From: Desulfobacterales bacterium
GTDB lineage: Bacteria > Desulfobacterota > Desulfobacteria > Desulfobacterales > JAFDDL01
DNA: 32,000 nucleotides
Reading direction: 5' to 3'
Assembly: GCA_963677545.2 (NCBI GenBank)
Contig: CAXXKH010000003.1
Coordinates: 672,563 to 704,562 of the forward strand
The position numbers and the translations under genes were made by a program. Shown piece by piece: positions 1-26,523 of the stretch (positions are counted from its first letter, which is position 1; every line of letters starts with the position of its first letter). A model generated the notes under the pieces. That model searched no databases. It was not told the DNA's origin and worked only from the letters and a program-made list of their open reading frames with translations.

Positions 1-1971
1 TTCCACATAGTCGAGGGCTGTCCGGACCGGGCTGCTTTTTTTAAAAAATTCCATCAGGTTGGTTTCAACGCGAAGGTGGCTTGTATAGATAACGGAAGCA
101 ACCACGATCGCCGCGCATACGACTATTACTAATCGATATTTTTCGAAAACGAATGAAAAGAGGTGGCGAAGTATCGTGGAAATCCTGTTGCCGCCGTCAT
201 ATTCCTGATAGACTTTTTTCGGGTCGAAACAGAGAATCAGGGGCGGCAGAAAAAAGAAAGAAAAGATGAACTCAAAAACCATGCCCGCGGATGCAATCCA
301 TCCGAATTCCTTAACCGGAGGGATATCGCTGATGCAAAGAGAAATAAACCCGATCGCCGTGGTAAGAGTGGTCAGGAAGCAGGGGAGTGCCACGCGATTC
401 ACTACATGGGAAAGTGCCTGTTTCCGCCGAGGGAACCGTTTCAGTATCTGCCGATCCATGTGGCTGAAGATATGAACCGTGTCGCAGAGCGCAAGCGCCA
501 TGACAAGTGGAATAATAATTGTGGTGACGTTGTTCAGGGCGATACCCATAAGCCCCATCAAGCCCCGGGTAGCGCCGACACAAATGGAGATATTGAGAAT
601 TGACAGAAATGTAATTCGAATATTTCTAAAAAAGAGCCATGTGAAAATGGTGAGAAGCAGATAGGTCGCGGGTACGAAAATGAGCACATCAGATGTGAGG
701 TATTGGCTGAGGCTGAGGTTGGTGGTGGTCCAGCCTGCCATATAAAATTTGTTCCCGGCGGCCTCGAAGGGGGCAAGAATCTCCTTCACATCTGCGAGGA
801 CCCGTTTCCTGAGGCCGTCATCCTGGGCATCGACATGGGGTTCGACCACAATGGCCGTTGTCCGGCCATCCTTCGAAATCAGATTTCCTTTATACAAGGG
901 GTTTTGCAGGGCTCTAGCTCTCAGTGCGGACTGCTCTGCTTCGTTTTCCGGCAGATAGTCTAAAAGCGGACGTACTTCAAAATAATCTTCTCCCCCGCTG
1001 ATTTCGTTGACGTTTGCTAGGCTGGTTACTTCTTCGACATCATCCAGCTCTTCAATAGACCAGGTGATCTGCTGGATTATCTCCAGTGTTTCAGGAGAAA
1101 ACAGGTTGTCGTTTTTAAAAGCGATAATGAAGAATTCATCATCGCCGAAAATGGTTTTGAATGTGTCGTAATATTCCAACTCGGGGTTGTTTTCAAGCGT
1201 GAAAAAGTCGAAGTCACTGGCTGTTTTAACAAAGGGGTTGTACGCGATAAAAAAGCATCCGAAAAGCAGTGCCGCTATGAAAAAGAGCTTGGGGAATTGG
1301 CAAACGATACCGAGATTCAACGGCGTTTTAGAAAGCTGTGCGGTCAGTTCCTCTATTTTCCGAAATATTCGATTATAGGTACTGTGTCGCTGGAGTATTT
1401 CCTTGTAGGTTGCCAGGGCTTCCGGTTTATTACCGCTTTGTTCCTGAATGATGGCGATTCGTTCAAGAAGTCTCGCCTCTTTTTCGGGATCGTTCTTAAC
1501 CAGGGAAAGAGCTTTCCGCAGCATATTGATGCCGGCATCTATATCTTCTTTTAATAGAAGAACTTCTGCGATTCCTTCAAAAGAGACGCTGGCAAATTCA
1601 GGAGAAATCTCGGCCGCTTTTTCAAACTCCTTTACGGCCTCATTATAAAAACCAAGGGATCTTAATTGGACGGCTCTTCTGATAAGGGCTTCCGCCGGCA
1701 GGTCACCAGGCACCCGTGTAACTTCAGATTCCGGTTTTTCCGCTGCTGTTGCTTTTTCGTCGATTATTTCGAGTCTTCTTGCAAGTGCTTTTGTAATAGC
1801 TTTGAGTTGCTTCAGTTTCCTGCTATCGAACTCTCCACTGTTTTTCAGGGTTTCACGGCATTGTGCAAGCATGGATTCGTATATGCCCGCTGCCTCTCTG
1901 AACAGGCCCTGCTGAACATATATTTCTGCTTCTTTCAAACCTTGCCGGGTATTGGGTTTTATTCTGCTCAT
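1..1971 (-). CDS. RND-superfamily MMPL-type exporter with a ~217-aa N-terminal TPR-like soluble extension; 3' end lies beyond the window
   Basis: Absent from the ORF track because this frame has no stop inside the window. Hand translation of the minus strand from ATG 1971..1969 showed no stop in any block checked: all of 421..1971, plus 1..60 in the same frame; 61..420 was not translated. N-terminus MSRIKPNTRQGLKEAEIYVQQGLFREAAGIYESMLAQ... (TPR-like helices). Then TM1 LNLGIVCQFPKLFFIAALLFGCFFIAY, loop start FDFFTLENNPELEYYDTFKTIFGDDEFFIIAFK, and TM bundle GIALNNVTTIIIPLVMALALCDTVHIFSH, typical of MMPL/RND proteins. Confidence 0.8.
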   Translation of the reverse strand, partial: MSRIKPNTRQGLKEAEIYVQQGLFREAAGIYESMLAQCRETLKNSGEFDSRKLKQLKAITKALARRLEIIDEKATAAEKPESEVTRVPGDLPAEALIRRAVQLRSLGFYNEAVKEFEKAAEISPEFASVSFEGIAEVLLLKEDIDAGINMLRKALSLVKNDPEKEARLLERIAIIQEQSGNKPEALATYKEILQRHSTYNRIFRKIEELTAQLSKTPLNLGIVCQFPKLFFIAALLFGCFFIAYNPFVKTASDFDFFTLENNPELEYYDTFKTIFGDDEFFIIAFKNDNLFSPETLEIIQQITWSIEELDDVEEVTSLANVNEISGGEDYFEVRPLLDYLPENEAEQSALRARALQNPLYKGNLISKDGRTTAIVVEPHVDAQDDGLRKRVLADVKEILAPFEAAGNKFYMAGWTTTNLSLSQYLTSDVLIFVPATYLLLTIFTWLFFRNIRITFLSILNISICVGATRGLMGLMGIALNNVTTIIIPLVMALALCDTVHIFSHMDRQILKRFPRRKQALSHVVNRVALPCFLTTLTTAIGFISLCISDIPPVKEFGWIASAGMVFEFIFSFFFLPPLILCFDPKKVYQEYDGGNRISTILRHLFSFVFEKYRLVIVVCAAIVVASVIYTSHLRVETNLMEFFKKSSPVRTALDYVE

Positions 1972-2398: not shown

Positions 2399-4363
2399 TT
2401 AAAAGTTTATTTCCAAAAGCCCATACACCTGATCATTGTCCGAATAAAAACCAATCGGTGTTTCTACCGATCCGTCAAAAAATTCTGCACCGAATTCAAG
2501 TCGAAGGGGCTGCCAATAGGCGATCTTGAACTTGGGATTGATCATAGTAGCATCTCCGGAAAAGTCATAATACCCACGACATTCAATTTCGTAATTACCG
2601 TTTGAAAAGGTTTTTCGAAACGTGCCGATCAGGGCGCTGGTTTGTTCCTCCGCCCAGACGATGAGCGGATCATAATCCCTGACCGAACTTTGGAAAAACT
2701 GAAGGTTGGCATACCATGCATTTGGGCTGTTGTAATCCATGCCGAGCATGTACTGCCACTGAGCTTTTTGCATACGTTCCAACCGGCTGGTTTGAAAGCT
2801 CTGGTTGTCAAAGTAGGCAATGTCGGCTCTGACCCCAAAATCTTTTACCGTTGTTTCAATCTCAAAACCGAAAATGTTTTGCCGGTTATGAACCAGTGAA
2901 ATGTTTTGGCCGGAAATGGAGGCAAACGATGCAAGATCAATCGGGGAAAACTCACCAGGCGGAAGCACAACACCCGGGGGCAGCCACATGCTGTCCGGTG
3001 TCGGTAAGTCCTCACGAGTGTAGAACCAACTGACGGCATAGTCGATATTTCTCAAAATTCCCGCTACCCGGATACCGTATTCGCTGTTGTCCAGGGAACA
3101 GCCGGGATCATCTTCAACTAAACCGAATGGACCAATTGTGCTGTCCGCGTGTCGAAACATGGCCCAGTCGGTGCCCGTGAAATCGAGTTCCGGGCCGAAA
3201 AAACCGGGGATATAAATACTCTGGAAGGTTATTTGGCCTTGGTATATTTCCAGGTTTGCCATGGGGATAGGGAGCTTCCGGTCTTCCCTGCGTCCGGCGA
3301 CACCATCCCGGTAGTCTTCAGGATTCAGATTGTCAAGGGGGCTGTAGCCATCTGTCTTGCCCCAGCGGACCACTTGATTGCCGAGCTTCAGGTTGAATCG
3401 CGGATGCGCGAAATTTATGTAGACATCGTGGAACCTCAGATTAAAGTCGTTATCCACATCCCCGCTGTTGGTATAACCATAATAATCGATATCCAGAGAG
3501 AATACCATTTGAAGATGGTTGTTCGGCTTATAGGTAGATTCCAGGATCAGTTCGGCGTGTCCATACCCATCGTCTTCGAATTCATTTTCAGTATTACTAT
3601 CCATGGATAGTAGGGTACGAAATCGTCCGGAAAGTTCGACTGGTGGCAGAGTGCTAATCGCATCCGGACTGCTGTCAGCACTGTCCCACAGGCCCTTCGC
3701 GCTTTCAGCCCCCGCCACATCCGAAGGCCCCTGATCCCAGAGATCACTGGCCCGGGTGTTATCGTCTTCAGAGGGGGGGGCTTCCCCCCAGAGATTGTCC
3801 GCATCGTCATCCGGGGATACGTCCGTATCCTCCCCCCAGATATCCTCGCTGCCTGCTGTTTCTTCTTCGTTGCTGCCGTGTGAAGTGGGCGTACTATCCG
3901 CTGCAGGTGAATGTTCGGTTGTCTGAAATGATTCTTGAGTCTCATTCTTGGGGTTGCTTATAAAAATGGTAACGACACCCCTGTTCTCTGAGGCATCGAA
4001 ATCAATACCGTTCAATATCTCGGTGTCAAGCACAATGCGCACTTTGCCGGGATGCTGTCCAACACGTACTGCTCTGACGATACCACTGCCGTCTTCCGGC
4101 CGTATGGTATTTTTTGAGAGAGTACACCCCTCCAGATCAATAACAATCCGATCTGGTGACGTCAATGTGAAAGGATTTATTTCCGGGATAATCCCGCTGA
4201 AATGGATTGTTACTGTGTCACCCGAATCATCGCTTTCAAGCTCGATATTTCTCACAACGGATCGTTGCATATCCCCGGTTTCGATATCTTCCCCGGAAGC
4301 TGACGGACAGATTGTAACCGCCATTGTCAACGCTGAAAGAACCCATATAGCCCAATTTTTCAT
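2399..4363 (-). CDS. Outer-membrane protein: signal peptide, AMIN-like domain, acidic Trp-repeat linker, and a DUF1302-like beta-barrel
   Basis: ORF 2399..4384; start moved to ATG 4363, giving signal peptide MKNWAIWVLSALTMAVTICPSASG. AMIN-like segment VRNIELESDDSGDTVTIHFSG...DRIVIDLEG...VRAVRVGQHPGKVRIVLD. C-terminal ~415 aa carry LGNQVVRWGKTDGYSPLDNLNP and end in the aromatic ...YGLLEINF, typical of OM barrels. Confidence 0.7.
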   Translation of the reverse strand: MKNWAIWVLSALTMAVTICPSASGEDIETGDMQRSVVRNIELESDDSGDTVTIHFSGIIPEINPFTLTSPDRIVIDLEGCTLSKNTIRPEDGSGIVRAVRVGQHPGKVRIVLDTEILNGIDFDASENRGVVTIFISNPKNETQESFQTTEHSPAADSTPTSHGSNEEETAGSEDIWGEDTDVSPDDDADNLWGEAPPSEDDNTRASDLWDQGPSDVAGAESAKGLWDSADSSPDAISTLPPVELSGRFRTLLSMDSNTENEFEDDGYGHAELILESTYKPNNHLQMVFSLDIDYYGYTNSGDVDNDFNLRFHDVYINFAHPRFNLKLGNQVVRWGKTDGYSPLDNLNPEDYRDGVAGRREDRKLPIPMANLEIYQGQITFQSIYIPGFFGPELDFTGTDWAMFRHADSTIGPFGLVEDDPGCSLDNSEYGIRVAGILRNIDYAVSWFYTREDLPTPDSMWLPPGVVLPPGEFSPIDLASFASISGQNISLVHNRQNIFGFEIETTVKDFGVRADIAYFDNQSFQTSRLERMQKAQWQYMLGMDYNSPNAWYANLQFFQSSVRDYDPLIVWAEEQTSALIGTFRKTFSNGNYEIECRGYYDFSGDATMINPKFKIAYWQPLRLEFGAEFFDGSVETPIGFYSDNDQVYGLLEINF

Positions 4364-4605
4364 GTTCGCTGTCCTATACCCCAACAGCGGGGTATTTAAT
4401 GAAAAGCCACTATTTCTCGTGCAGAGACGTAAAGATACAGAGCGATATAAAGCTGTGAAGCGAGGATGCCGGGAAGCTATGATGCAAAAACAAGCTTGAA
4501 ACTTTTGAGCCTCTTAAGAAAAGCGGTGTGGAATTGCATTGGGTTGCTATGAAGAAACAGAAACTTTCTGTACCTCAGTCCCCCTTGCATTTGAAAAACA
4601 TCCCG

Positions 4606-4755: not shown

Positions 4756-5541
4756 CTAACTCCCATGCATCATATACGCCTTGGTGAAAATATTGTCAGG
4801 GATATCCCTGTTATAATGTAACTCCAGCGTCTTCATGTATGTATGGTGATCCTTTTTCAGGTCATGCATCTCTGATTCGGTAACAGACCAGATGCCATCC
4901 ACCTGCTTTATTTCTATGGCCGTAAACTCTTTCATCACTTTTCCCCTGCTGTCATAATACTCGGTTTTAACGGGAAGTAACGCTGTTTTAGAAATCCAGG
5001 AAATCAATTTGCCGTACTGAGTAGATTTGGCGTCCTTGGGAATGCTCTCAAGAACCCAGCATTCGTGGGTCCCCACGTTCTCCTCCCGCAGAATGTTATG
5101 CCGGTCCTGGTCGGGTTTGCGGCGCTCCATGTCCTCATAGGTATAATCGGTGTTTACGAACCGGCTGGATTTCTGTGATGAAACGATTCTGCGCACGCGG
5201 TTGAGCGCCGGAAGAAAGAGGAACTGATCGTTTTCGCGTTCTTCATTTTCCCAGGTCAAAAACGAGGTGCCGTCAATATCAGCCGGAGAAGTAAATTGGA
5301 TATAGCTTTTTTTTATTTCCCCGTATTCTTTGGTGGCGCTAATCAGGGTGCGAAACCGCTTTCTGCCCCTTTTGTCCAACAAGAGCATTCGGACCGTGGC
5401 ATAGGAGTCCTTTCCGTCTTCTCGGTTATATACCTTTTGTGCCAGTGTCGATCCATCGATGGGAAATGGCTGAGCCGATGCGTTTATGCAGATAGCAAAT
5501 ATTAAGAAGAATCCCATCAATTTTCTAACAGATAATTTCAT
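4756..5541 (-). CDS. LolA-like outer membrane lipoprotein-sorting family protein (periplasmic)
   Basis: Signal peptide MKLSVRKLMGFFLIFAICINASA. The body (YNREDGKDSYATVRMLLLDKRGRKRFRTL...QFLFLPALNRVRRI...DYTYEDM) matches my recollection of the LolA-like family that accompanies MMPL exporters and DUF1302-type barrels. Confidence 0.65.
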   Translation of the reverse strand: MKLSVRKLMGFFLIFAICINASAQPFPIDGSTLAQKVYNREDGKDSYATVRMLLLDKRGRKRFRTLISATKEYGEIKKSYIQFTSPADIDGTSFLTWENEERENDQFLFLPALNRVRRIVSSQKSSRFVNTDYTYEDMERRKPDQDRHNILREENVGTHECWVLESIPKDAKSTQYGKLISWISKTALLPVKTEYYDSRGKVMKEFTAIEIKQVDGIWSVTESEMHDLKKDHHTYMKTLELHYNRDIPDNIFTKAYMMHGS

Positions 5542-5614: not shown

Positions 5615-5644
5615 GTTCTCTGCGTCACTGCGTCTCTGCGCGAG
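5615..5644. repeat. Solo copy of the GCGCAGAG-type repeat arm
   Basis: GTTCTCTGCGTCACTGCGTCTCTGCGCGAG, same orientation and near-identical to the right arm at 2342..2374. Confidence 0.6.
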
Positions 5645-5675: not shown

Positions 5676-7682
5676 TCAGACAAATTCCTGAAGCGCCGGT
5701 AACGCGAGTTGGGCGGTTTCAATGGAAACATCGATCCCTGGTGGGGACATGATTTGATAAATTGTGTGGTAGCTATCAGGTATTGGTCCGACAATTTGCT
5801 CGATCCCCTGCAGGTGAATTCCCTGACGAGCCAGAAAAGAGATATAGGTGTGTCGTAATGCCTCGGGGGTTATTTGTTGCGGATCTCGAATCTGCGCCTG
5901 CTCGGCCGCCTCTAAGATACATTCCTCAGTTGTTTTGAGGGGAAAGGGGGCGCCCTTTTCGTTTCTCAGAATGTATTCGTCACCGTTCGTAGTCACTGAA
6001 AGGTTTTTTAAAAGAATCGAACGATAAAGTGGTGTTAATGGAATCGTTCGAGTGGAAGCCCCAGACGCTTTCAGCTTTCCTGTATCGAAATCGATATTTT
6101 TCCATTTTAACCGGATAATTTCATCGATGCGCAATCCGTTAAACAATCCCGCGATTATAGACTGTGTTGCGTCACTTGAAGCCACGTACAGTTTTTTAAT
6201 TTCCACATCCGACAACTCACGTGACAATATCTGTTCTGCTGGTGGAAGAAGGTTCTGACTTGCAGGCGTGCCTTGTAATTCGCTATGGGTTTGTGATGGC
6301 AGGCTTTGAAACACTTGATTGTAAGTGACGGGGAAAGCACCCAGGTCTTCTTTTCCGGCAGGGGCTCTTGTCAGAAAATCGAAGATTAGAACAGCGGCAA
6401 TTGCCAGCAACAGTGACACAACGACACTGATGGCAGCGTCACGCACATAATTTGGACGCGAAGGAGACTCCGGGAGGAAAGCCCTTTCGAGAACTTTGAT
6501 CTGAAGCAAGTCCGCGTCGCTTTTAATTTCCATTGCAACCATTTCTTTCTGATATTCTCTGCTCAACTTTTCGAGTTCCAGCAGGTTTTCTTTCAGCGAT
6601 TCGTATTCGGAAAAACGACCGCTGAATTCGGCGGCTTTTTTTTCATATGAAGCTATCTGAGCACGCAAATCATTTTCTGCGTGGCGCGCGCTTATGATTG
6701 CCTGTTCAGCCTCTTCAAGGGCAACTGTTTTAAGTTCCGTATGTTTGGATTGGATTTCTTCTATAAGACGGTGATATCTGTCTATGGTTGTCCGCGTGTT
6801 TTTGTCGATTTCTAAAAACTGAGGGGTGTACCGCGCTTCGTAATCCCTGACCAATTCCTCCATTTCGTCTGCTTTTTCCTCCAGACGCAGGAGTTCGGTG
6901 GTTTTTTTATAATTGCCTGCCCATTTTCCCTGTTCGATCGCTTCTTTGACTGAACGGAGATTCGCTTCCGCCAGTGTTCTATTTTCCGTTGCTTTATTCA
7001 GCGAATTATTCAACCCCTTCAGGGTAGAGAGAACTTTATTGCCATCTCGCTCCAGAGTGACAATGTCATATTTTTGGCGAAGCTGTTCCAGTTCCTCTCG
7101 TTTCTTTTCAATTTTATTGTTCAAGGTCTCGATTTGTTGATGAAGAGATACCGTGGTTGAATTCGAATAGGCTTGTTGTGTTTTTGAGTTCATGCCTACA
7201 TAGCGATCGATCCACGAATTGACGATGACCGGTAAGATCGCTTTATTCGGGCCGGCTGCTGTCAGGCGAATGACTGCACTATCTGAACGGGTTGTAACAT
7301 GAAGCATCGGACGGAGGGCGGAAACGGTGAACGGTTCCAAATACCCGGTATAGTCTGTTGAGGATAAACCGGTCAGCACATCCGACAGCAGGCTTCTGCT
7401 TAACAGCACTTGTTCCTGAAGCGCAATGTCATATGTGCTGGCATCCTGCCCTTCGCTGTTCGGATTTTTAGGTTCGATGAGCAAATCGGCGCTTGACTCG
7501 TAAATAGGCGGCCTGGCAAAAGTAAAAGCAAGTGACAGGGCGGCGACGACAATAAATACCCCTGCAAATATAAGCAGTCTTTTCCAAGACCTGTGTATTC
7601 TGGATCGAGGGGGTAGTTTACGGTATGTGCCGTTGAGAGGAGAAGGTTCGTAAATATGAGTTTGAGATGATTGCTGGGCCAT
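5676..7682 (-). CDS. Polysaccharide co-polymerase (Wzz/EpsF-like chain-length determinant) fused to a C-terminal tyrosine-recombinase-like domain
   Basis: TM1 LLIFAGVFIVVAALSLAF. Wzz motif FARPPIYESSADLLIEP. Long coiled coil. LPESPSRPN followed by TM2 AAISVVVSLLLAIAAVLIFDFL. The C-terminal ~185 aa (5676..6230) carry GLRIDEIIRLKWKNIDF, TRTIPL, and ITPEALRHTYISFLARQGIHLQGIEQIVGP...HTIYQ, resembling integrase boxes I and II. Confidence 0.7.
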   Translation of the reverse strand: MAQQSSQTHIYEPSPLNGTYRKLPPRSRIHRSWKRLLIFAGVFIVVAALSLAFTFARPPIYESSADLLIEPKNPNSEGQDASTYDIALQEQVLLSRSLLSDVLTGLSSTDYTGYLEPFTVSALRPMLHVTTRSDSAVIRLTAAGPNKAILPVIVNSWIDRYVGMNSKTQQAYSNSTTVSLHQQIETLNNKIEKKREELEQLRQKYDIVTLERDGNKVLSTLKGLNNSLNKATENRTLAEANLRSVKEAIEQGKWAGNYKKTTELLRLEEKADEMEELVRDYEARYTPQFLEIDKNTRTTIDRYHRLIEEIQSKHTELKTVALEEAEQAIISARHAENDLRAQIASYEKKAAEFSGRFSEYESLKENLLELEKLSREYQKEMVAMEIKSDADLLQIKVLERAFLPESPSRPNYVRDAAISVVVSLLLAIAAVLIFDFLTRAPAGKEDLGAFPVTYNQVFQSLPSQTHSELQGTPASQNLLPPAEQILSRELSDVEIKKLYVASSDATQSIIAGLFNGLRIDEIIRLKWKNIDFDTGKLKASGASTRTIPLTPLYRSILLKNLSVTTNGDEYILRNEKGAPFPLKTTEECILEAAEQAQIRDPQQITPEALRHTYISFLARQGIHLQGIEQIVGPIPDSYHTIYQIMSPPGIDVSIETAQLALPALQEFV

Positions 7683-8102
7683 GATAATCCTGAATTATTT
7701 TATGACATTAATGAGGTTTCAACGAACAATCAACCGTTTATTAGGAGCTGCTAAGAGTGACAAGCCCTGAACACGGAGAATACAATAATTTCCCACTCGT
7801 TACAATTTTTTCCTTTGTTTTTTTATTAAAGGTTGCCGTGAAAATTCATTTTCAATAAATAAGCCTATAAAATAATAAGTTATAGCCGATGATCGTGCTC
7901 GCATTTTTTGGCATGATTGCTGCTTATGTTTTGGGAATAAATAAATGTTTCTTTTTCCGGAGATTCCTGATAGTGACTCTTAAAAGTTATTATCCAACAT
8001 TTTGTGCTTTTAATCTGTATCCATCACAAGGATTTGCGATAAACAAATGTTGTATCTTCACAATGACTCCACAATCCCTTCATATCGAAAACGGTTGTTT
8101 AT

Positions 8103-8731: not shown

Positions 8732-9925
8732 CTATGATGAATATTGAGTCAGCAATTTTGGATTTAGCACCCTGACATTCTCGTCCTCTAAGGCGACAAT
8801 TTCGTTTTTCCGCCATTCCGTAATTATTTCCCGCAGGTTTTCCGGCCAAAGACCGCATTGTCTTGCCAGCCACGTCACGTGTATGGGTTTTGTCCCCTCA
8901 TCCGAGGCGTCGAGAAGTACATTGGCCACGGCTGAGGGCGATGGTGCAGTAATATTTTTATATCCCTGAATCTGACGTCTCAGTCGAGTGCCGAGCAGTC
9001 TGCAGATTTGCAGCGCCTTATCTCTGCTGTGCTCCAGCTGCTTCATAAACATCTCCTTGCTCCAGACCATTACATCCACTTCGTTGGAGTAGGGGACGAT
9101 TGTGGTTGTCCGTGCACCGCCATCGAGCAGGGATAGTTCACCGAAGATGTTGCCTTTGGAAATCAGAAAGTCCTTTTCCCCAATACGGTTGAACTGATTC
9201 CGTTCGGGAATAATGTCGTTGCCGTTTTTATCGGTCGGCAAGACCCTGATGGAACCCCTGAGGATAAAAAACGCGTCATCTCCCGCTTCCCCCTTCTGGG
9301 CAATAATTTCTCCCTCTTGATATATTTTCCGGACATTAGAGTCCTGAAGAATGATTTCGGAGGAAAAATCAAAAATTTCCCGGGAGCGCGGAGGAATTTT
9401 ATCCCAGCTTAGAAAAGCCGGTGTCATGGGAACTTGCAGTCCCGGTGATTCAAAATCGTTTCCGAGCCGTTTTGCGTTGAATGCGCGCTGGAGCAAGCGC
9501 ATGAGCGGAGGGTGCAGGGTTGCGACAACATGCCTGGCCCCCATTTTGCGCATGCTATGGACTGCCATTTTGAAGAGCCCGATAAGCAGCCCTGGATAAC
9601 TCCTGAATTCTTTTAATACGCAGAGCCACCCGAAACAGGCACACCTGCCTTCCAGATCTTTGATAAAAGGTCTGAAATCAAAATGTTCGTCTGCCGGGAA
9701 ACCGGCTGGGCTGTCCATGACCACACGGATTGTTCCGATTGGTTCTGCATCCTTGAAGGCAATGATATTCAGCGTTTCGTCAAAGCTGTCGAACATATCG
9801 AGAATGTAGGGGGTCTGGTGGGGAAATCGCCGCTCCTGCTCGACGAACACTCTGTGACGCAGTTTAAAAACGGTTTCCTTGTCCTCCGAGGATTCAGCAA
9901 CTTTGAACACGATCGGCATGAGCAA
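8732..9925 (-). CDS. Fusion protein: GNAT-type N-acyltransferase (PEP-CTERM-associated N-acyl amino acid synthase-like) + cyclic-nucleotide-binding domain + CRP-like wHTH
   Basis: SD AGGAGGG precedes the ATG. N-terminus FKVAESSEDKETVFKLRHRVFVEQERRF...IGTIRVV...CFGWLCVLKEFRSYPGLLIGLFK. Middle IYQEGEIIAQKGEAGDDAFFILRGSIRV...IFGELSLLDGGARTTTIV (cNMP phosphate-binding cassette). C-terminus VTWLARQCGLWPENLREIITEWRKNEIV (HTH-like). Confidence 0.7.
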   Translation of the reverse strand: MLMPIVFKVAESSEDKETVFKLRHRVFVEQERRFPHQTPYILDMFDSFDETLNIIAFKDAEPIGTIRVVMDSPAGFPADEHFDFRPFIKDLEGRCACFGWLCVLKEFRSYPGLLIGLFKMAVHSMRKMGARHVVATLHPPLMRLLQRAFNAKRLGNDFESPGLQVPMTPAFLSWDKIPPRSREIFDFSSEIILQDSNVRKIYQEGEIIAQKGEAGDDAFFILRGSIRVLPTDKNGNDIIPERNQFNRIGEKDFLISKGNIFGELSLLDGGARTTTIVPYSNEVDVMVWSKEMFMKQLEHSRDKALQICRLLGTRLRRQIQGYKNITAPSPSAVANVLLDASDEGTKPIHVTWLARQCGLWPENLREIITEWRKNEIVALEDENVRVLNPKLLTQYSS

Positions 9926-10009
9926 CCCTCCTGGAATTTTTGATTTGTACTTTTGGATTAATATAAGTATCAGATGTTTTCAATAATTTTTTTCTATGTT
10001 TTCTTATCT

Positions 10010-10218
10010 CCCGTTTCGTTCAAGATCGTGAGAGACCGCCGGGAACTACCTGAAAAGCAGAAAAATAATCTCGCGCAGAGCCGCAGAGCCGCCGAGAACT
10101 GCAAAAGAAGCTATTGCATTTCGCTGATCGCGAAATACAATAAAGGCATTCCCACTGGAAAGGAGCGCCTGCCGCAGGCATCGAGGTTTTTCTTTGCCGA
10201 GGCGTCCCTGTCTTGTAA
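10010..10218 (+). repeat. Modular hairpin repeat, copy with L-type arm variants, H1 hairpin and truncated H4
   Basis: TTCGTTCAAGATCGTGAGAGACCGCCGGGAAC, then TCGCGCAGAGCCGCAGAGCCGCCGAGAAC, then ATTGCATTTCGCTGATCGCGAAATACAAT, then GCATTCCC..GGAAAGG, then GCCGCAGGCATCGAGGTTTTTCTTTGCCGAG. Confidence 0.7.
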
Positions 10219-10304
10219 TCCATGTGCAAATAGGAATAGCCAACTATCGATGGAGTGATGATAACCAGCTTTACATTAAATTTAATACCTGATAGTTTTG
10301 TGTT

Positions 10305-10616
10305 ATGGAAAAAGCTGCTAAGGAGACTTTTAAAAAGGTTGTTACGGAACAATTTCCAGTCAATCAGAAGCGAGGGGGAGGCATAGTTAAAATCGAGGCT
10401 TGGGAAAATGAAAAGGGTGAAATCGTTAAATACAGTATGGCATACATCAATCCTTTCATTTTTCCGGAGGATAATGGCCGTGTGGTTGGGTATGACAACA
10501 CACATAATTTTCATCATCGCCACTTTTTCGGAGAACTATCTGAAATAAAAGATTTTTCAAGCTATCAGGAATTGTTAAATCGTTTCGAAAAAGAGCTTAA
10601 GGAGTTCATTGAATGA
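10305..10616 (+). CDS. DUF6516/TumE-like putative toxin
   Basis: 103 aa with GYDNTHNFHHRHFFGE motif (compare RYDDTPHFPKLNSFPNHKH at 31357..31587). 4-nt ATGA overlap with the downstream wHTH gene. Confidence 0.5.
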   Translation: MEKAAKETFKKVVTEQFPVNQKRGGGIVKIEAWENEKGEIVKYSMAYINPFIFPEDNGRVVGYDNTHNFHHRHFFGELSEIKDFSSYQELLNRFEKELKEFIE

Positions 10617-10987
10617 GTGTAGAATTAAGACCTGGATTGTTATCCGATTTTTTTGCATCTGCGAAGGCAACCGCAAAAGAGATCGACGAGGGCAAAAAAG
10701 TAACGAAAAAAAATATTATTTGGGTCGAGCCATCCGATCTTATGGCCATATTAAAGCCGGAAAGGACGCGATTAGTTCGGTATTTAAAGAAAAAGCAACG
10801 GGTGGTTTTTTCAGAACTGATGTCTGAAATGCAGCGTACACCGGTCAGTTTAAATAACGACTTGAAAATATTATCCCAATACCAATTGGTTAGAATATTC
10901 AAGGAATCCAATGCCGGACATGGAATGCATAAGGTCATCGAGGCAACCTACGGTAACGAAAATATTGAGTTTAAGGCTGTGATTTGA
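10613..10987 (+). CDS. wHTH DNA-binding protein (TumA / HVO_A0114-like putative antitoxin-regulator)
   Basis: Translationally coupled to 10305..10616. Layout IIWVEPSDLMAILKPERTRLVRYLKKKQRVVFSELMSEMQRTPVSLNNDLKILSQYQLV fits a MarR-like winged helix. Confidence 0.5.
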   Translation: MSVELRPGLLSDFFASAKATAKEIDEGKKVTKKNIIWVEPSDLMAILKPERTRLVRYLKKKQRVVFSELMSEMQRTPVSLNNDLKILSQYQLVRIFKESNAGHGMHKVIEATYGNENIEFKAVI

Positions 10988-11002
10988 AAACTGAAAAGGG
11001 TA

Positions 11003-11157
11003 TTACATCTCGTTGACTACGAATTACATTAGTGCGTTTCTTATAGATAGGGAGAACCTTGCAGCAGGCATAGATGGTTTTGCTTGCCGAGTGTTCCAGG
11101 CAAAAATATCTTTTCTTGGCGCCTCTTTGCGTTCTTGAACGAAGTGGGCGGTGAGAA
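11003..11157 (+). repeat. Modular hairpin repeat, degenerate H1/H2 plus H3, H4 and R arm
   Basis: ...GCAGCAGGCATAGATGGTTTTGCTTGCCGAGTGTTCCAGGCAAAAATATCTTTTCTTGGCGCCTCTTTGCGTTCTTGAACGAAGTGGGCGGTGAGAA. Confidence 0.65.
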
Positions 11158-11202
11158 GGGCTTAGAAAAACATTATTTTTCAAAAAAGACTGACGTTTTT
11201 TA

Positions 11203-11460
11203 ATGGTAACAAAGCGAAAAATACTTCAGAAATTGCTTTCAGGGTCAAAAAATATCCGATTTTCTGATATGATAACCCTTGTTGAAGCTTTTGGTTTTCA
11301 GCTTTCTCGTACCAATGGAAGTCATAATGTTTTCGTTCATCCTGACATCCCGGAACTTATCAATCTTCAAGAGGTGAAAGGGAAAGTCAAACCATATCAG
11401 GTTCGTCAATTCCTGAAACTAATAGAGCGAAACAACTTGAGCTTGGAGGAGTATAAATGA
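11203..11460 (+). CDS. hicA: HicA-family toxin
   Basis: FGFQLSRTNGSHNVFVHPD...LQEVKGKVKPYQVRQFLKLIE matches the HicA GSH core. ATGA overlap with the hicB-like gene. Confidence 0.75.
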   Translation: MVTKRKILQKLLSGSKNIRFSDMITLVEAFGFQLSRTNGSHNVFVHPDIPELINLQEVKGKVKPYQVRQFLKLIERNNLSLEEYK

Positions 11461-11681
11461 GAGATTACCACATAAATATTTTCTATTCCGAAGAGGATGG
11501 TGGATACATTGCCGACATTCCGGATTTGAATGCTTGCTCTGCCTACGGTAATACCCCCGAAGAGGCGCTTTGCGAAGTTCAAAAAGCGAAAACGATTTGG
11601 CTGCAAACCGCTCGTGATAGTAAAAGACCGATCCCCCTTCCGAAATACAGACCTGTTATCTATCAAGCATCATGTGCTTAG
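11457..11681 (+). CDS. hicB: HicB-family antitoxin (short form)
   Basis: YHINIFYSEEDGGYIADIPDLNACSAYGNTPEEALCEVQKAKTIWL is the typical HicB N-terminal fold. Coupled to hicA. Confidence 0.75.
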   Translation: MRDYHINIFYSEEDGGYIADIPDLNACSAYGNTPEEALCEVQKAKTIWLQTARDSKRPIPLPKYRPVIYQASCA

Positions 11682-11758
11682 TGATATGACGATTTTTCGA
11701 TCGAGATCTCAAAGGGCTTTTTATGTCTGTCGTGTGAACTACCTTTTTTTATAAGAAT

Positions 11759-11817
11759 TGTTTACCGGCCACTCCGCCTCGACATCGGGACTACGCTAAA
11801 GGGTGCCAAGGGCCGCT
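11759..11817 (+). repeat. L-arm fragment of the modular repeat
   Basis: TGTTTACCGGCCACTCCGCCTCGACATCGGGACTACGCTAAAGGGTGCCAAGGGCCGC, compared with 12518..12575 TTTTTTACCGCCCACTACGCCCTGTCGGACTTCGTTCAAGGCCGCCAAGGACCGCC. Confidence 0.55.
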
Positions 11818-11984
11818 TAGATTGACAAAGGCTGGTTGCATAGGAAATATTTGCCTGATAGAAAGATAAAAGATAAATTGCATTCGAAACTACCGCGGAT
11901 TTGGGAATAGTAACTTTGAATTAATTGAGTATGGACATTCAGATTATTATTCTGTTCCATAACTATTGAAAGGTAAGTGAGAGC

Positions 11985-12305
11985 ATGATGTCAACTCAGG
12001 ACAAGAAAATCCTTGAACTTTTTACGGCACGAGTTCGAGACCTGTACAAGGACGCACGGGTTTGGGCCTATGGATCACGCGTACGGGGGGATGCAACCTG
12101 GGAGTCCGATTTTGATATTTTTATACTCTTGCCGAAAAAGGATGAATTTGCAGAGACAAAGATCAGGAATATCGGTTGGGAGATTGGCTTTGAACATGAA
12201 AGAGTTCTTACCACCGTGATAATGGAGCAAAATCAATTTGAGCATGGTCCCATGTCTGAGAGCACTCTTGTTAAAAATATCCTGCATGAAGGCCTGGAAG
12301 CGTGA
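11985..12305 (+). CDS. MNT-type nucleotidyltransferase antitoxin
   Basis: AYGSRVRGDATWESDFDIFILL (GS...D.D polymerase-beta-type NTase motif). 4-nt overlap with the HEPN gene. Confidence 0.75.
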   Translation: MMSTQDKKILELFTARVRDLYKDARVWAYGSRVRGDATWESDFDIFILLPKKDEFAETKIRNIGWEIGFEHERVLTTVIMEQNQFEHGPMSESTLVKNILHEGLEA

Positions 12306-12484
12306 CCTCTGAAAACATAAAAGCGTTGGTCCGGTATCGGCTTGAACAATCCGACGAGTCTATTAAAGCTGCGGTTTTGTTACTCCAAGAGGGCATCCCG
12401 AGACGCTCGGTCAACAACTCCTACTATGCTATGTTTTATGCCGTCATGGCGCTTCTTTGCGATCTTAAGCGAAGCGAGCGGTGA
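12302..12484 (+). pseudogene. HEPN-domain toxin gene truncated after ~51 codons by a repeat R arm
   Basis: The native part ...LLLQEGIPRRSVNNSYYAMFYAVMALL is a typical HEPN first half. The last codons CDLKRSER* are encoded by the repeat GGCGCTTCTTTGCGATCTTAAGCGAAGCGAGCGGTGA. The C-terminal half, where HEPN proteins carry the Rx4-6H motif, is absent. Confidence 0.65.
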
Positions 12485-12487
12485 GAT
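12448..12487 (+). repeat. R arm of the modular repeat (forms the 3' end of the truncated HEPN ORF)
   Basis: GGCGCTTCTTTGCGATCTTAAGCGAAGCGAGCGGTGAGA, compared with 15724..15762 GGCGCTTCTTTGCGATCTTGAGTGAAACGGGCGGTGAAA. Confidence 0.7.
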
Positions 12488-12517
12488 AGCAGTTATTTTT
12501 TGGCTTTTATGATATTG

Positions 12518-12665
12518 TTTTTTACCGCCCACTACGCCCTGTCGGACTTCGTTCAAGGCCGCCAAGGACCGCCAAGGCCGCCAAAGGCGGCTAAAAGCTG
12601 CAAGGTGCTATTGTATTTCGCTGGTCACGAAATACAATGAGAGCATTCCCTTCGGGAAGAGGGAG
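12518..12665 (+). repeat. Modular repeat, L arm through H2, right half missing
   Basis: TTTTTTACCGCCCAC...CTTCGTTCAAGGCCGCCAAGGACCGCCAAGGCCGCCAAAGGCGGCTAAAAGCTGCAAGG..ATTGTATTTCGCTGGTCACGAAATACAAT..GCATTCCCTTCGGGAAGAGGG. Confidence 0.7.
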
Positions 12666-12798
12666 CAGATATGTTTTTCTCAGCGGTTTGCTTGAATTGA
12701 TGGGCTTCGCACTGTATGTGGAAAATATTCTGTTGACAAAATGCCCTGTAGATTTACATTTGAAATGTACGAAAATATAACGAATTTATATTATTATA

Positions 12799-12956
12799 GT
12801 GAACGTTACAGAACTCAGGAAACATATATCTGCATATATGAATAAGGTAAAAGCAGGTGAAGAGGTGGAGATAACGTCTCGGGGCAAGGTTATTGCGAGG
12901 CTGGTTCCGGAGGTGGATGAAAGCCGCGCTGCACGCATGCGTCTGGCTTCTATTAG
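12799..12956 (+). pseudogene. Truncated orphan copy of the Phd/YefM-type antitoxin gene at 14387..14626
   Basis: 12713..12956 aligns with 14303..14553 (promoter, operator and the first ~53 codons: NVTELRKHISAYMNKVKAGEEVEITSRGKVIARLVPEVDESRAARMRLASI). The SD and ATG are lost and homology stops at 12956. No cognate PIN gene follows. Confidence 0.6.
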
Positions 12957-13000
12957 TCTCTATGGTGAGCACTCAAAAAGAAGTTGCTATTTATTAAAAA

Positions 13001-13390
13001 TCAAATTTTCCAACCACGTTGAACAACAATTTCGGGCAAGGGGTAATGTTTGGTGTTTAATGTATAAATCTTACCTCCGGTTTGTATGACGGTGGCAGCC
13101 AGAATCGCATCGTTCACGTCCATGCCATGGCTCGGATTCCAGCGACGATAAAGCTCTCCTGCCTTATCGATAATAGTCTGGTCGACCTGTTCGGTTTTAA
13201 ATTGCGATAAAAACAGCAAAGTGGCTTTTTCTTCAACCGGGCGCATAAAAAACACCACTTCGGCGCGCTGCATGGTACCGATCCAGAGTTCCATCTTTTC
13301 TCTGTCGCGCAGTTTTTTAAGTAAGTTGAGAGCGTTCCGTTCACCGCGCAAATGCCATATGAGAATATCCGAATCGATAAACGCTTTCAT
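13001..13390 (-). CDS. vapC: PIN-domain toxin (VapC-like)
   Basis: MKAFIDSDILIWHL...MDVNDAILAATVIQTGGKIYTLNTKHY shows the PIN acidic residues. 4-nt overlap with the upstream antitoxin gene. Confidence 0.75.
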   Translation of the reverse strand: MKAFIDSDILIWHLRGERNALNLLKKLRDREKMELWIGTMQRAEVVFFMRPVEEKATLLFLSQFKTEQVDQTIIDKAGELYRRWNPSHGMDVNDAILAATVIQTGGKIYTLNTKHYPLPEIVVQRGWKI

Positions 13391-13644
13391 CGCTTATATC
13401 TTTCCTGGGATATGCGCATTGTTGTCTTGATTCGTGTAATCGTATCGTCCGCGGATTCGTCACGTTGCCAGCTGCCAAACGTTTGGACCAAGAGATCCAG
13501 ATCTTTCTCCGAAGCGATTTTTTCCGCATAGGCCTGGACAGCGTTTTCGAGGACAGCTTTTTTTGATGTCCCCAGTTTTTGAGCCAGCATACCGATTTTC
13601 CGAATCACCGCTTCATCCATACGAGTTGACATTATTTTATCCAT
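13387..13644 (-). CDS. Antitoxin partner of the PIN toxin (RHH/VapB-like)
   Basis: Start moved from 13803 to ATG 13644, preceded by AGGAGG. The longer ORF N-terminus is repeat-encoded. MDKIMSTRMDEAVIRKIGMLAQKLGTSKKAVLENAVQAYAEK. Confidence 0.65.
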   Translation of the reverse strand: MDKIMSTRMDEAVIRKIGMLAQKLGTSKKAVLENAVQAYAEKIASEKDLDLLVQTFGSWQRDESADDTITRIKTTMRISQERYKR

Positions 13645-13672
13645 TTCGAACACCTCCTGTGTATATGTAAGA

Positions 13673-13701
13673 AAGATAACGTAAGATTGTTTAATTGTCA
13701 A
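13673..13701 (-). promoter_or_regulatory. Candidate sigma-70 promoter for the antitoxin-PIN operon
   Basis: On the minus strand: TTGACA (13701..13696), 17 nt, TATCTT (13678..13673), about 30 nt upstream of ATG 13644. Confidence 0.35.
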
Positions 13702-13728
13702 CGGATCATGGTTGAATTGAATGTTACA

Positions 13729-13808
13729 GCGCTTTTGGGATCCTCTCTGCGATCTTGAGCGAAGCCCTGTGCCCCTTGTGCCGGGGAGGCAGGCAGTGAG
13801 CATGCAGT
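13729..13808 (+). repeat. R arm of the modular repeat, long variant with extra GC hairpin
   Basis: TTTTGGGATCCTCTCTGCGATCTTGAGCGAAGCCCTGTGCCCCTTGTGCCGGGGAGGCAGGCAGTGAGCATGCAG, compared with 14137..14206. Confidence 0.6.
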
Positions 13809-13964
13809 AGCATTTAAGCCGTTGATGTTGATTTTATTTATGCGGTAAGATCGATGCCCTGACAAGGCGTTGACTATAGTCATTGACCATAGTACCAAAT
13901 GAATAACGCTTATTTGCGATTTGAAGGCATAAATATAGTTGTTTTAAGCCTTTGTGATAAGAAC

Positions 13965-14206
13965 TTTTTACCGCCCACTTCGTTCAAGACCGCCAAGAAC
14001 CGCCAAGAACAACAAGTGCACATTGTATTTCGCTGATCGCGAAAAACAATGGGTGCATTCCCTCCAGGAAGGTAGTGCATGCCGCAGGCATCAAATTTTT
14101 TCTTGGCCGAGATGTCTCCGGCAAACAAAAAGATCTTTTCTTGGCCTTCCTTCCCGACCTTGAGCGAAGCCCCGACGCCGGGGCAGGTAAGGCGGTGAGA
14201 ATGCAG
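13965..14206 (+). repeat. Complete ~240-bp copy of the modular repeat (L arm, H1-H4 hairpins, R arm); reference copy
   Basis: The L arm TTTTACCGCCCACTTCGTTCAAGACCGCCAAGAA is the inverted complement of the consensus R arm end (..TTCTTGGCGCTTCTTTGCGATCTTGAACGAAGTGGGCGGTGAAAA in other copies). Internal hairpins: ATTGTATTTCGC-TGATC-GCGAAAAACAAT, TTCCC-TCCA-GGAA, ATGCC-GCA-GGCAT and TTGGCCGAG-ATGTCT-CCGGCAAA. Confidence 0.75.
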
Positions 14207-14324
14207 TTTTTTGCTCGACCAAGCGGGTCAGGAAATTTATGGCTGTGAGGTTTGAAAGCGTTTTTGGGGGTATCCCGATTTGTCTGAAATGAGGGGCTTT
14301 ATAATGTAAATGGAGAAAATACTA

Positions 14325-14365
14325 TTGACAAAATGCCCTACAGATGTACATTTGAAATGTACATC
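14325..14365 (+). promoter_or_regulatory. Promoter plus perfect 23-bp palindromic operator of the phd-PIN operon
   Basis: TTGACA 14325..14330, 16 nt, TACATT 14347..14352. The palindrome GATGTACATTT-G-AAATGTACATC at 14343..14365 overlaps the -10. Confidence 0.55.
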
Positions 14366-14386
14366 TATAAAATCAAGGTGATTTAT

Positions 14387-14626
14387 ATGATTATAGTAAA
14401 TGTTACAGAGCTTAGAAAACATATACCTGCATATATGAACAAGGTGAAGGCCGGTGAAGAGGTGGCGATAACGTCTAGGGGCAAAGTTGTCGCAAGGTTG
14501 GTTCCGGAGGTAGATGAAAGCCGCGCTGCACGAATGCGCCTGGCTTCAATCAGAAAAGAGAGCTGGGTGGGGGATGTGATCACACCGACCGGTGAGCCGT
14601 GGGAGGCTGACCATGATTCTCCTTGA
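14387..14626 (+). CDS. Phd/YefM-type antitoxin
   Basis: Start moved to ATG 14387, preceded by AAGGTGA. MIIVNVTELRKHIPAYMNKVKAGEEVAITSRGKVVARLVPE is a typical Phd/YefM N-terminus. Overlaps the PIN gene start. Confidence 0.75.
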   Translation: MIIVNVTELRKHIPAYMNKVKAGEEVAITSRGKVVARLVPEVDESRAARMRLASIRKESWVGDVITPTGEPWEADHDSP

Positions 14627-15008
14627 CACCTGTGTCATGATATTCGATGCGCTTACGCCGGAAAAACTCAGTCAGAAGGCCTTCAAGGAACTGGAAAAAG
14701 GCAGACAATCAAATAACCTTGTCTGCAGCGATATTACACTATGGGAAATCGCTATGCTTGTCAGTAAAGAAAGACTGAAGCTTCCTATACCACTTCATGA
14801 TTTTCTGACCGATGTCATATTGGCCAACAGACTGCGGGTGCTTCCCATTGGCCCTGAAATTGCCGCTTTTTCAGCCTGCCACAGCGAATTTATTCATGGC
14901 GATCCAGCTGACAGAATTATCGCGGCAACCGCGTTGCACCACAATGCGGTTCTTCTAACCTGTGATACCAGACTGAGAAAAATAAAAAGCTTGAAAACGA
15001 TGTGGTGA
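14613..15008 (+). CDS. vapC: PIN-domain toxin (VapC-like)
   Basis: MILLDTCVMIFDAL...HGDPADRIIAATALHHNAVLLTCDTRL. ATG 14613 preferred over the upstream alternative start at 14592. Confidence 0.8.
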   Translation: MILLDTCVMIFDALTPEKLSQKAFKELEKGRQSNNLVCSDITLWEIAMLVSKERLKLPIPLHDFLTDVILANRLRVLPIGPEIAAFSACHSEFIHGDPADRIIAATALHHNAVLLTCDTRLRKIKSLKTMW

Positions 15009-15029
15009 TTGAATCGATCTTTTTTTTCA

Positions 15030-15190
15030 GCTCACTTCTCCCTATGGGATAAACTGAGATGCGGTATTGGTGAGAGCTGCAAAAAGCCCTGCCGGAGGCA
15101 TCGAAGTTTTTATTTGCCGAGTTGTCTTCGGCAAACAAAAAATCTTTCCTTCGCGTTTCTTTGCGATCTTGAACGAAGTGGGCGGTGAAA
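15030..15190 (+). repeat. Modular repeat copy lacking H1 (H3, H4 and R arm present)
   Basis: GCTGCAAAAAGCCCTGCCGGAGGCATCGAAGTTTTTATTTGCCGAGTTGTCTTCGGCAAACAAAAAATCTTTCCTTCGCGTTTCTTTGCGATCTTGAACGAAGTGGGCGGTGAAA. Confidence 0.7.
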
Positions 15191-15332
15191 TATTCAGTAT
15201 TTTTTTTGCTTTTCAGTGAAGTCCCTATCATGCATAGATACCTAAATAATTCTGCAAGGTTGTGGTATTTTTTATTTAATGATAAACTGATTTCTTAAGT
15301 CAGAATCCATTAAGGATATTGGCGAGATCGCG

Positions 15333-17841: not shown

Positions 17842-17902
17842 ACTGCTGCTCCTGAAAAAAATCAGTCCAAAGTCTGGATAAACGCATGGTGTGGAGTTTA
17901 AC

Positions 17903-18910: not shown

Positions 18911-18923
18911 GAGAGGAGATTGT

Positions 18924-26351: not shown

Positions 26352-26523
26352 TGTGTTTCCTCCAAGTGATGATGAAGCAGCAGGGAGCTTGGGGCGTGGA
26401 ACTTGGAGTTTAAAAAATATTTCCACTACACCATTTTTGTCTATGATTTTAGTATTTCCCATATCTGACTCCGGTCTACGTTATTGGTTTTTGACTCACT
26501 TGTAAAAGCATGAATCTCACGGG

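Follow-up and report, generated by a model that had tools for sequence, protein, structure and literature searches.

A polysaccharide co-polymerase fused to a degenerate tyrosine-recombinase fold in a Desulfobacterales genome and its relatives

Architecture of the fusion protein

The gene described here lies in a 32,000-nucleotide stretch of DNA from a Desulfobacterales bacterium (GenBank assembly GCA_963677545.2, contig CAXXKH010000003.1, forward-strand positions 672,563 to 704,562), which we call the window and whose own numbering is used throughout. It occupies positions 5676..7682 on the reverse strand as one uninterrupted, ATG-initiated open reading frame (ORF) of 668 codons, with its stop codon at 5676-5678 and an even base composition along its length, and its product matches both the Wzz and the Phage_integrase families of Pfam. 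A first-pass annotation, made from the sequence and a list of its ORFs, had read this gene as a single ORF encoding a polysaccharide co-polymerase (PCP) with two transmembrane (TM) segments, a coiled coil and a proline-rich segment, followed by a linker of about 50 aa and, in the last ~185 aa, by the catalytic fold of an integrase in the position where PCP-2a proteins carry a bacterial tyrosine kinase (BY-kinase). All these elements were recovered in our analysis, the first from the ORF listing and the others from profile searches against Pfam and NCBIfam, AlphaFold2 models, a XerA profile match and Foldseek comparisons.

The protein (the query below) is predicted to have both ends in the cytoplasm. 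An N-terminal segment of 36 residues (7575..7682), modeled with a predicted local distance difference test score (pLDDT) below 50 at residues 1-28 and basic directly before the first membrane helix (RKLPPRSRIHRSWKR), would be cytoplasmic by the positive-inside rule. It is followed by TM1 (about residues 37-56, 7515..7574; hydrophobic stretch LLIFAGVFIVVAALSLAFTF, within model helix 28-56), by a periplasmic PCP domain of about 360 aa with the Wzz motif region, long helical hairpins and a proline-rich motif (about residues 57-416, 6435..7514; recognized by PF02706, TIGR03007 and Foldseek), and by TM2 (about residues 417-438, 6369..6434; AAISVVVSLLLAIAAVLIFDFL, within model helix 412-438). A cytoplasmic tether then spans about residues 439-485 (6228..6368), where pLDDT is below 50 at 440-484 and disorder is therefore predicted, and leads to the degenerate recombinase domain at residues 486-668 (5679..6227). 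Across the family the tether has a median length of 49 aa (range 37-67). The whole-protein AlphaFold2 model, a monomer like the other model used here, was built from a 19-sequence family alignment and has a mean pLDDT of 80, with a long helical periplasmic domain between the two membrane helices and a confidently modeled C-terminal domain. Directly upstream of the ATG, at 7694..7722 on the same strand, lies a promoter-like site (TTGAAA-17-AATAAT, 10 of 12 consensus positions), which was found by a consensus scan only and carries no weight as to function.

The co-polymerase part is recognized by sequence and by fold. PF02706 (Wzz) matches residues 33-104 with 30.2 bits against a cutoff of 25.5, while GNVR (PF13807), the other co-polymerase family that had been put forward for checking, gave no match in the query at E<=1 in Pfam and matches 1 of 30 diverse family members. 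The best NCBIfam match for the region is TIGR03007, the chain-length determinant of the XrtA system, which aligns at residues 30-447 (E=1.1e-20); with 73.4 bits against an equivalog cutoff of 278.85, the query is not an equivalog of that family. In Foldseek searches of the PDB, the N-terminal part of the model resembles Wzc (9r68_I, E=7.5e-10), and also KpsE and WzzE. Just ahead of TM2 stands the proline-rich motif P407/P410-x-Y412-x-R414-D415 (in the query LPESPSRPNYVRD), which is strongly conserved in an alignment of 102 full-length members (P410 in 99%, Y412 in 97%, R414 in 94% and D415 in 96%). A PF02706 score at or above the gathering threshold, two TM helices around a helical PCP fold and a proline-rich motif before TM2 are among the features that mark the PCP/Wzz superfamily, and the identity of residues 1-438 as a PCP part is confirmed by profile matches and predicted structure.

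The same holds for the C-terminal part. Phage_integrase (PF00589) matches residues 515-632 with 47 bits (cutoff 27.1, E=3.1e-12), and among NCBIfam models that of archaeal XerA (NF040815) aligns at residues 482-632 (E=1.6e-16), XerC, XerD and the integron integrases being weaker. A profile of the family's C-terminal domains found XerA 5hxy among PDB sequences at E=6e-18, and the corresponding part of the whole-protein model superposes on 5hxy_F with a root-mean-square deviation of 2.6 Å over 161 columns (Foldseek). When residues 478-668 were modeled separately (pLDDT 90.5, predicted template-modeling score 0.87), the top 50 PDB matches were tyrosine recombinases throughout, with XerA first (template-modeling score over the query, TMq, 0.70-0.72) and the integrases of methicillin-resistant Staphylococcus aureus (MRSA) and Tn1549, IntI4, XerH, lambda Int, Cre and P2/HP1 Int after it. 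Profile matches and model together confirm residues 486-668 as a tyrosine-recombinase catalytic-fold domain. No core-binding domain (Phage_int_SAM type, SAM-like) was found by Pfam; what precedes the recombinase fold is the disordered linker and a TM helix. Nor did any kinase-type P-loop family (AAA_31, CbiA, ParA) match the query in Pfam at E<=1.

A conserved family with a degenerate catalytic site

The combination is by no means confined to the window. A word-indexed search returned 25 homologues, nearly all 617-675 aa long, covering 89-100% of the query at identities down to 26%, and full-length members of the 102-member alignment reach about 22% identity. Among 1.84 billion cluster representatives (clusters at 50% identity), the profile of the C-terminal domain matched at least 209 at E<=1e-30, and of the 150 matches listed most are 600-693 aa long with the recombinase domain at the extreme C-terminus. 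Matches of ~200-330 aa were considered as stand-alone domains and rejected; they were taken as gene fragments because they begin within the coiled coil, TM2 or the linker. Scanning metagenomes for the motif [TS]Y[LIV][ASV][FY]L[VA]RQG located 298 loci encoding relatives in assemblies from several repositories, and a genome scan with a closer alignment located six, none from the window's own species, in metagenome-assembled genomes assigned to Desulfobulbaceae, Myxococcota, Gamma- and Alphaproteobacteria. In 30 diverse members, PF00589 was recognized in 23 and PF02706 in 22. The proteins are labeled in their sources as 'hypothetical', 'ExoP' or 'uncharacterized protein involved in exopolysaccharide biosynthesis'.

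The proviso of the first-pass annotation that the ORF might be an assembly or frameshift artefact joining a PCP gene to an integrase gene, for which the unusual architecture alone would speak, can practically be dismissed because the fusion is conserved across the family: it is present on contigs of 7.44, 7.36 and 6.57 Mb and in at least 100 independent full-length proteins at 22-63% identity, besides the 209 clusters and 298 metagenomic loci, and a profile of the N-terminal domain yields no close relative without the C-terminal one. By this comparison of sequences, the PCP-recombinase fusion is confirmed as a real and conserved family.

The N-terminal profile also bears on how the fusion arose. 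Built on the first 440 residues and evaluated within the word-indexed candidate set, its matches of at least 260 bits were all family proteins of fusion length. The next match was one fragment bearing the C-terminal domain (113 bits), and below that gap came 12 proteins of 703-794 aa at no more than 79 bits, with AAA_31/CbiA/ParA-type kinase domains in 11 and GNVR in seven. Judged by these scores, the closest non-fusion relatives of the N-terminal domain are kinase-bearing PCP-2a proteins of the ExoP/Wzc/Etk type. Since the strong matches are fusion proteins only, the result supports a joint evolution of the PCP and recombinase parts as one family, and since the next-best matches carry kinases, it suggests that the recombinase fold replaced the BY-kinase as the cytoplasmic module.

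Whereas the fold has been kept, the active site has not. In XerD the catalytic hexad is R148-K172-H244-R247-H270-Y279, and in tyrosine recombinases Arg-I and Lys contact the scissile phosphate. Mapped through the hidden Markov model alignment to XerA and the XerD hexad, the corresponding positions of the query are R518 (Arg-I), S543 (Lys), E607 (His-II), R610 (Arg-II), P633 (His/Trp-III) and Y642 (Tyr), that is, R-S-E-R-P-Y in place of R-K-H-R-H/W-Y; the earlier reading of Ser, Glu and Pro at the three altered positions agrees exactly with the XerA alignment. Column counts from the 102 full-length members extend the loss. The Arg-I column holds Ser in 49, Thr in 18 and Arg in nine, so that this residue is absent from 91% of the family; the Lys column holds Ser in 34, Asn in 12 and Gly in 12, with Lys outside the eight commonest residues; His-II reads Glu in 31, Ala in 18, Leu in 15 and His in six; and His/Trp-III reads Pro in 30, Arg in 19, Ala in 10 and His in seven. 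Arg-II (Arg in 80, Trp in 18) and the tyrosine (Tyr in 79, Leu in 16) are the exceptions, and tend to be kept or lost jointly: 73 members have both, 16 neither and 13 are mixed, in counts uncorrected for phylogeny. The complete catalytic set is found in 0 of the 102. The proposal that the domain is degenerate and non-cleaving thus holds, and more strongly for the family than for the query, and the C-terminal domain is, to judge by these residues, a catalytically dead pseudo-enzyme. The accompanying statement that both arginines and a tyrosine candidate are retained is correct for the query (R518, R610, Y642) but not family-wide, given the state of the Arg-I column, and the presence of both arginines appears as a quirk of the query's lineage, not a family trait. 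What the family conserves instead is R488-E489-L490, E494, G516, E521, R545, A593, H611, L617, R619-Q620-G621, G632, P647 and P662, and a C-terminal tail PPG...YPxL, with the PPG motif at 647-649.

The domain is also acidic across the family. As whole-domain values, with which local basic patches would be compatible, the isoelectric point (pI) has a median of 5.19 (interquartile range 4.92-5.58), with a median net charge of -6, and is 5.42 in the query; 2% of the members have a pI above 8.5, and the comparators, two XerA catalytic domains and one small integrase with intact motifs, lie at 9.1-10.2. Because the catalytic residues are lost, a core-binding domain is missing and the domain is acidic, DNA recombination or generic DNA binding by it is unlikely. 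Of the 'DNA- or protein-binding module' suggested initially, the DNA half therefore fares poorly, and so does the idea that polymer export is coupled to DNA, whereas the protein- or ligand-binding alternative, with a regulatory role, remains and is favored.

Genomic neighborhood

Downstream of the fusion gene, on the same strand, lie three genes for envelope proteins. The first, after a gap of 134 bp, encodes a LolA-like/DUF1329 periplasmic protein (4756..5541; PF17131, E=2.4e-66), the second a putative outer-membrane protein with AMIN and DUF1302 domains (2399..4384; PF11741, PF06980), and the third a TPR-MMPL transporter of RND type (1..1971; PF03176 and TPR matches), of which the window holds the 5′ part of 657 codons before the gene runs past its edge; the complete protein has 970 aa in a sister-strain locus (L001). 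No terminator-like site was found within the 134-bp gap, and the LolA-like gene might share an operon with the fusion gene, though only within the query's subclade. A DUF1302 outer-membrane protein (AmeA type), a periplasmic DUF1329 protein of the LolA superfamily and an RND transporter make up the AmeABCD efflux system for apolar compounds (monoterpenes; PMC6394551). The downstream trio resembles this module, for which the AMIN and TPR additions are unusual.

Between the DUF1302 and MMPL genes, 295 bp of AT-rich sequence are bracketed by a pair of 40-nt inverted repeats, 90% complementary (2007-2046 and 2342-2381). A copy of the repeat core CTCTGCGCCTCAGCGTCTC with 3 mismatches lies at 5618-5636, where the 134-bp gap follows the stop codon of the fusion gene, giving three matches where 0.01 would be expected by chance. 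The repeat could be a MITE-like (miniature inverted-repeat transposable element) or REP-like (repetitive extragenic palindromic) intergenic element, or could bound an invertible segment; the domain of the fusion protein cannot be the invertase of the 2007-2381 segment.

On the other side, at 8732-9925 on the reverse strand, lies a gene that joins an N-acyl amino acid synthase of FeeM type (GNAT) to a domain binding cyclic nucleotides. Its product shows a weak similarity (34.6 bits, cutoff 112) to TIGR03694, the acyltransferase associated with PEP-CTERM/exosortase systems, and could be a cyclic-nucleotide-regulated synthase of a lipo-amino-acid signal. Between this gene and a ThiF gene lies a dense toxin-antitoxin island (~10000-15700) with three PIN-domain genes, HicA/HicB, a PhdYeFM antitoxin, NTP_transf_2, a TumE-like gene and PDDEXK_3. 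The forward-strand genes at 15805-19895 encode a ThiF-nitroreductase fusion of 678 aa (1014 bits to PRK14851, slightly below its cutoff), a WbuX-like N-acetyl-sugar amidotransferase homologue and an NAD-dependent epimerase/dehydratase, and look like a sugar-modification cassette with an E1-like enzyme. Farther on, all on the reverse strand, come a PEP-CTERM protein with weak PepA similarity (20039-20971) and a LuxR/GerE regulator (21461-22177); beyond these, two TPR proteins of PrsT type (24063-26462, 26845-29142) pass the TIGR02917 cutoff, and the gene at 29459-30868 encodes a member of the TIGR03790 family. A possible defense system was considered as well and rejected, the PADLOC matches being LmuB and JetC coiled-coil noise (E>=3.7e-4).

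In PEP-CTERM loci an EpsF-like PCP is usually accompanied by a separate EpsG kinase. Genes for PrsT-like TPR, PEP-CTERM and weakly TIGR03694-like acyltransferase proteins lie 1 to 19 kb from the fusion gene, but Pfam and NCBIfam scans of the window ORFs found no exosortase, EpsG, kinase, Wza or Wzy gene. In agreement with the first-pass annotation, which had seen no kinase gene in the window, a BY-kinase-type domain was absent from the scanned window ORFs, and the Pfam annotations precomputed for the sister-strain locus L001 show none either. At the locus of the closest informative relative (P0004, 49% identity), the family gene is part of a sugar-modification operon. Before it come the genes of a PEP-CTERM protein, a hexapeptide acetyltransferase, a family 2 glycosyltransferase (GT2) and an FAD-binding protein, and after it those of a DegT aminotransferase and, two genes downstream, of a LolA-like protein. 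The link to PEP-CTERM systems proposed at the outset therefore stands for the window and for this relative but not across the family, where neighbor scans did not recover it and a crude PEP-CTERM regular expression gave 7 matches in 883 kb of family loci, an enrichment that is not clear. Links to glycan genes of this kind and to a LolA-like gene are limited to the query's subclade; in Desulfobulbaceae, gammaproteobacterial and other relatives the flanking genes are unrelated.

Among 67 same-strand close neighbors of family genes, the commonest families are SNF2/Helicase_C, VanZ with heparinase II/III-like, and GT2. In one subclade (L037, L044, L047, L051 and L052), a large SNF2-family helicase with SNF2_assoc lies immediately upstream on the same strand, with GT2, fatty-acid hydroxylase and DUF2064 genes downstream of the family gene. 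At six other loci (L064, L065, L071, L075, L084 and L085) the family gene adjoins a gene, always in the same orientation and upstream of it at five of the loci, whose ~1,200-aa product combines an N-terminal VanZ domain with DUF4962 and heparinase II/III-like domains; for another subclade, this again hints at a connection with glycans. One further locus (L012) encodes, at 13115-13783 on the forward strand and two genes from the family member, a 222-aa stand-alone tyrosine recombinase with intact motifs (GARLSE, GLRHGF, LGH, IYT), the intact integrase used above as a comparator of charge; it is probably an unrelated mobile-element gene.

Possible function and relation to known systems

We propose that the protein is a PCP with a tethered pseudo-recombinase that serves as a cytoplasmic protein- or ligand-binding module for regulation or oligomerization, a role inferred from its parts and to which we assign an even chance. 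The N-terminal part would, by analogy with other PCPs, form an oligomeric periplasmic cage aiding the polymerization and export of a surface glycan (or glycolipid), the glycan-making genes presumably often being encoded elsewhere in the genome. In the place of the BY-kinase, the pseudo-recombinase would act as the cytoplasmic module, working by binding a protein or a small anionic ligand and not on DNA, and would control the assembly or the activity of the co-polymerase. In recombinase tetramers the C-terminal segment is donated cyclically to the adjacent protomer, and in Wzc octamers the tyrosine tail of one kinase is inserted into the next; by analogy, the conserved PPG...YPxL tail might pack from neighbor to neighbor in a ring. 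A more specific version of this proposal, which we put forward tentatively and as distinctly less probable, is that the family forms a new PCP class, 'PCP-Int', in which the fold has been exapted as a membrane-tethered cytoplasmic ring or sensor of an envelope-spanning glycan/glycolipid export machine, replacing phospho-control by the BY-kinase. An anionic signal or a partner protein would be bound in the conserved remnant pocket of R545, R610, H611, Y642 and R619-Q620, and the tail would mediate the cyclic oligomerization.

Several observations weigh against the proposed role. From 82 non-redundant loci, 49 could be evaluated on both sides, and in 21 of these the gene is solitary; no Pfam family occurs in more than four of the 67 same-strand neighbors, and the 25 commonest neighbor families include neither a kinase nor Wza, Wzy or Wzx. 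With no conserved neighbors, the polysaccharide role rests on homology of the N-terminal domain. Arg-II (80 of 102), H611 (94 of 102) and the tyrosine (79 of 102) are mostly kept and R545 is near-invariant, and because of this a residual anion pocket with a catalytic or a ligand role is possible. Finally, a pI computed over the whole domain would tolerate basic patches on part of its surface.

The alternative that survives best looks to the transporter next door: the protein could serve the adjacent Ame-like RND system, which would move an apolar compound or a glycolipid, as its adaptor or cage in the periplasm, and not be a classical Wzx/Wzy co-polymerase, with the C-terminal domain regulating the transporter. 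The same-strand order of the fusion gene, the 134-bp gap with no terminator-like site, and the LolA-like, AMIN-DUF1302 and TPR-MMPL genes would fit, as would the LolA-like gene downstream of P0004 and the DUF1302, DUF1329 and RND composition of AmeABCD (PMC6394551); there is also a precedent of a PCP serving a transporter in KpsE with KpsMT, KpsE being among the fold matches. This neighborhood is, however, not kept in the other relatives examined, and LolA_like accounts for one of the 67 same-strand neighbors, the one at the window's own locus L001, so that we consider the adaptor reading unlikely.

Next in order, and again unlikely, is that the pseudo-recombinase serves a separately encoded BY-kinase or phosphatase, either for docking or as a mimic of its substrate, with Tyr642 or Y613 as the phospho-acceptor. 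The kinase is split off as a separate protein in PCP-2b systems. The domain occupies the kinase position of the nearest PCP relatives, its Tyr persists in 79 of the 102 members and Y613 hardly varies; a precedent would be the phosphorylation of a genuine tyrosine recombinase, HK022 Int, by the BY-kinase Wzc, as reported in PMC2516531 (citing Kolot et al. 2008). Against it, the search for a kinase gene was negative both in the window and among the 25 commonest neighbor families, the Tyr is Leu in an entire subgroup (16 of 102), and there is no tyrosine cluster.

That the domain is a non-cleaving, membrane-tethered DNA-binding module, tethering DNA or regulating transcription in a ToxR-like manner and so coupling the state of the envelope to DNA, is in our view improbable. 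The fold does belong to a DNA enzyme, Arg-II, H611, R545 and Tyr are mostly conserved, the ~49-aa tether could be long enough to reach the nucleoid, and a SNF2 helicase lies upstream in the five loci of one subclade, but a pI of 5.42 here and of 5.19 in the family median, against 9.1-10.2 in real recombinase domains, the missing core-binding domain and the loss of Arg-I and Lys all speak to the contrary. An active membrane-anchored site-specific recombinase or invertase, which might for example flip the repeat-flanked segment 2007-2381 to phase-vary the locus, is very improbable indeed: the query retains Arg-I, Arg-II and Tyr, and the 40-nt inverted repeats around 295 bp lie ~3.3 kb downstream, but the general-acid Lys, His-II and His/Trp-III are replaced by Ser, Glu and Pro in an acidic domain with no core-binding domain beside it, and the family at large is missing Arg-I and never shows the full catalytic set.

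The family is unexpected for two fields, while its function is inferred. In the best-studied PCP-2a systems, such as Wzc, polysaccharide production depends heavily on cycles of tyrosine phosphorylation for its control, and a widespread lineage in which the kinase has apparently been swapped for a dead recombinase fold implies that a co-polymerase can be controlled independently of a kinase. For the tyrosine recombinases, an acidic, membrane-tethered and non-catalytic catalytic domain is an apparently unreported fate. Full-text searches of the literature turned up no account of either a PCP-recombinase fusion or a membrane-tethered pseudo-recombinase, in line with what had been stated at first, and the fusion protein passes the cutoff of no NCBIfam model, although precomputed Pfam annotations do show the two domains together. 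There is a practical risk as well, in that the PF00589 match could wrongly label such genes as integrases or mobile-element markers.

Among known systems, the nearest are the PCP-2a proteins with a BY-kinase, such as Wzc/Etk of E. coli and ExoP. Like these, the fusion protein has two TM helices around a large helical periplasmic domain and then a cytoplasmic C-terminal globular domain, and Wzc gives the best fold matches to its N-terminal part. In contrast to them, it lacks GNVR, the P-loop kinase with its Walker motifs and the C-terminal tyrosine cluster, carries a recombinase fold on a ~49-aa tether instead, and is usually encoded outside a wza-wzb-wzc-type cluster. The XrtA/PEP-CTERM determinant TIGR03007 (EpsF-like) is the best NCBIfam match, and the window shares PrsT-like TPR and PEP-CTERM proteins with its systems; the differences are the score far below the cutoff, the extra C-terminal domain, the absence of an exosortase or EpsG gene from the window and a PEP-CTERM context that is not family-wide. 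KpsE, of the PCP-3 type, has a similar periplasmic fold (8tsh chains, E ~1e-5) and is likewise a PCP, one that works with an inner-membrane transporter. Its structure-determined chains are far shorter (226-265 residues), it is not known to have a globular cytoplasmic C-terminal domain, and its transporter is of the ABC type, whereas the one beside the fusion gene is RND/MMPL. With the Xer-type recombinases (XerA, XerC/XerD and integron integrases), finally, the protein shares the catalytic fold and the aligned residues E521, R545, R610-H611, G621, G632 and Y642, but it differs in having no core-binding domain, Ser, Glu and Pro at the Lys, His-II and His-III positions, an acidic and membrane-tethered domain, and conserved residues of its own (R488-E489, R619-Q620 and the PPG/P662 tail). 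The fusion is best filed as a PCP with a new cytoplasmic module, outside the PCP-2a proteins, the TIGR03007 equivalogs and the functional tyrosine recombinases.

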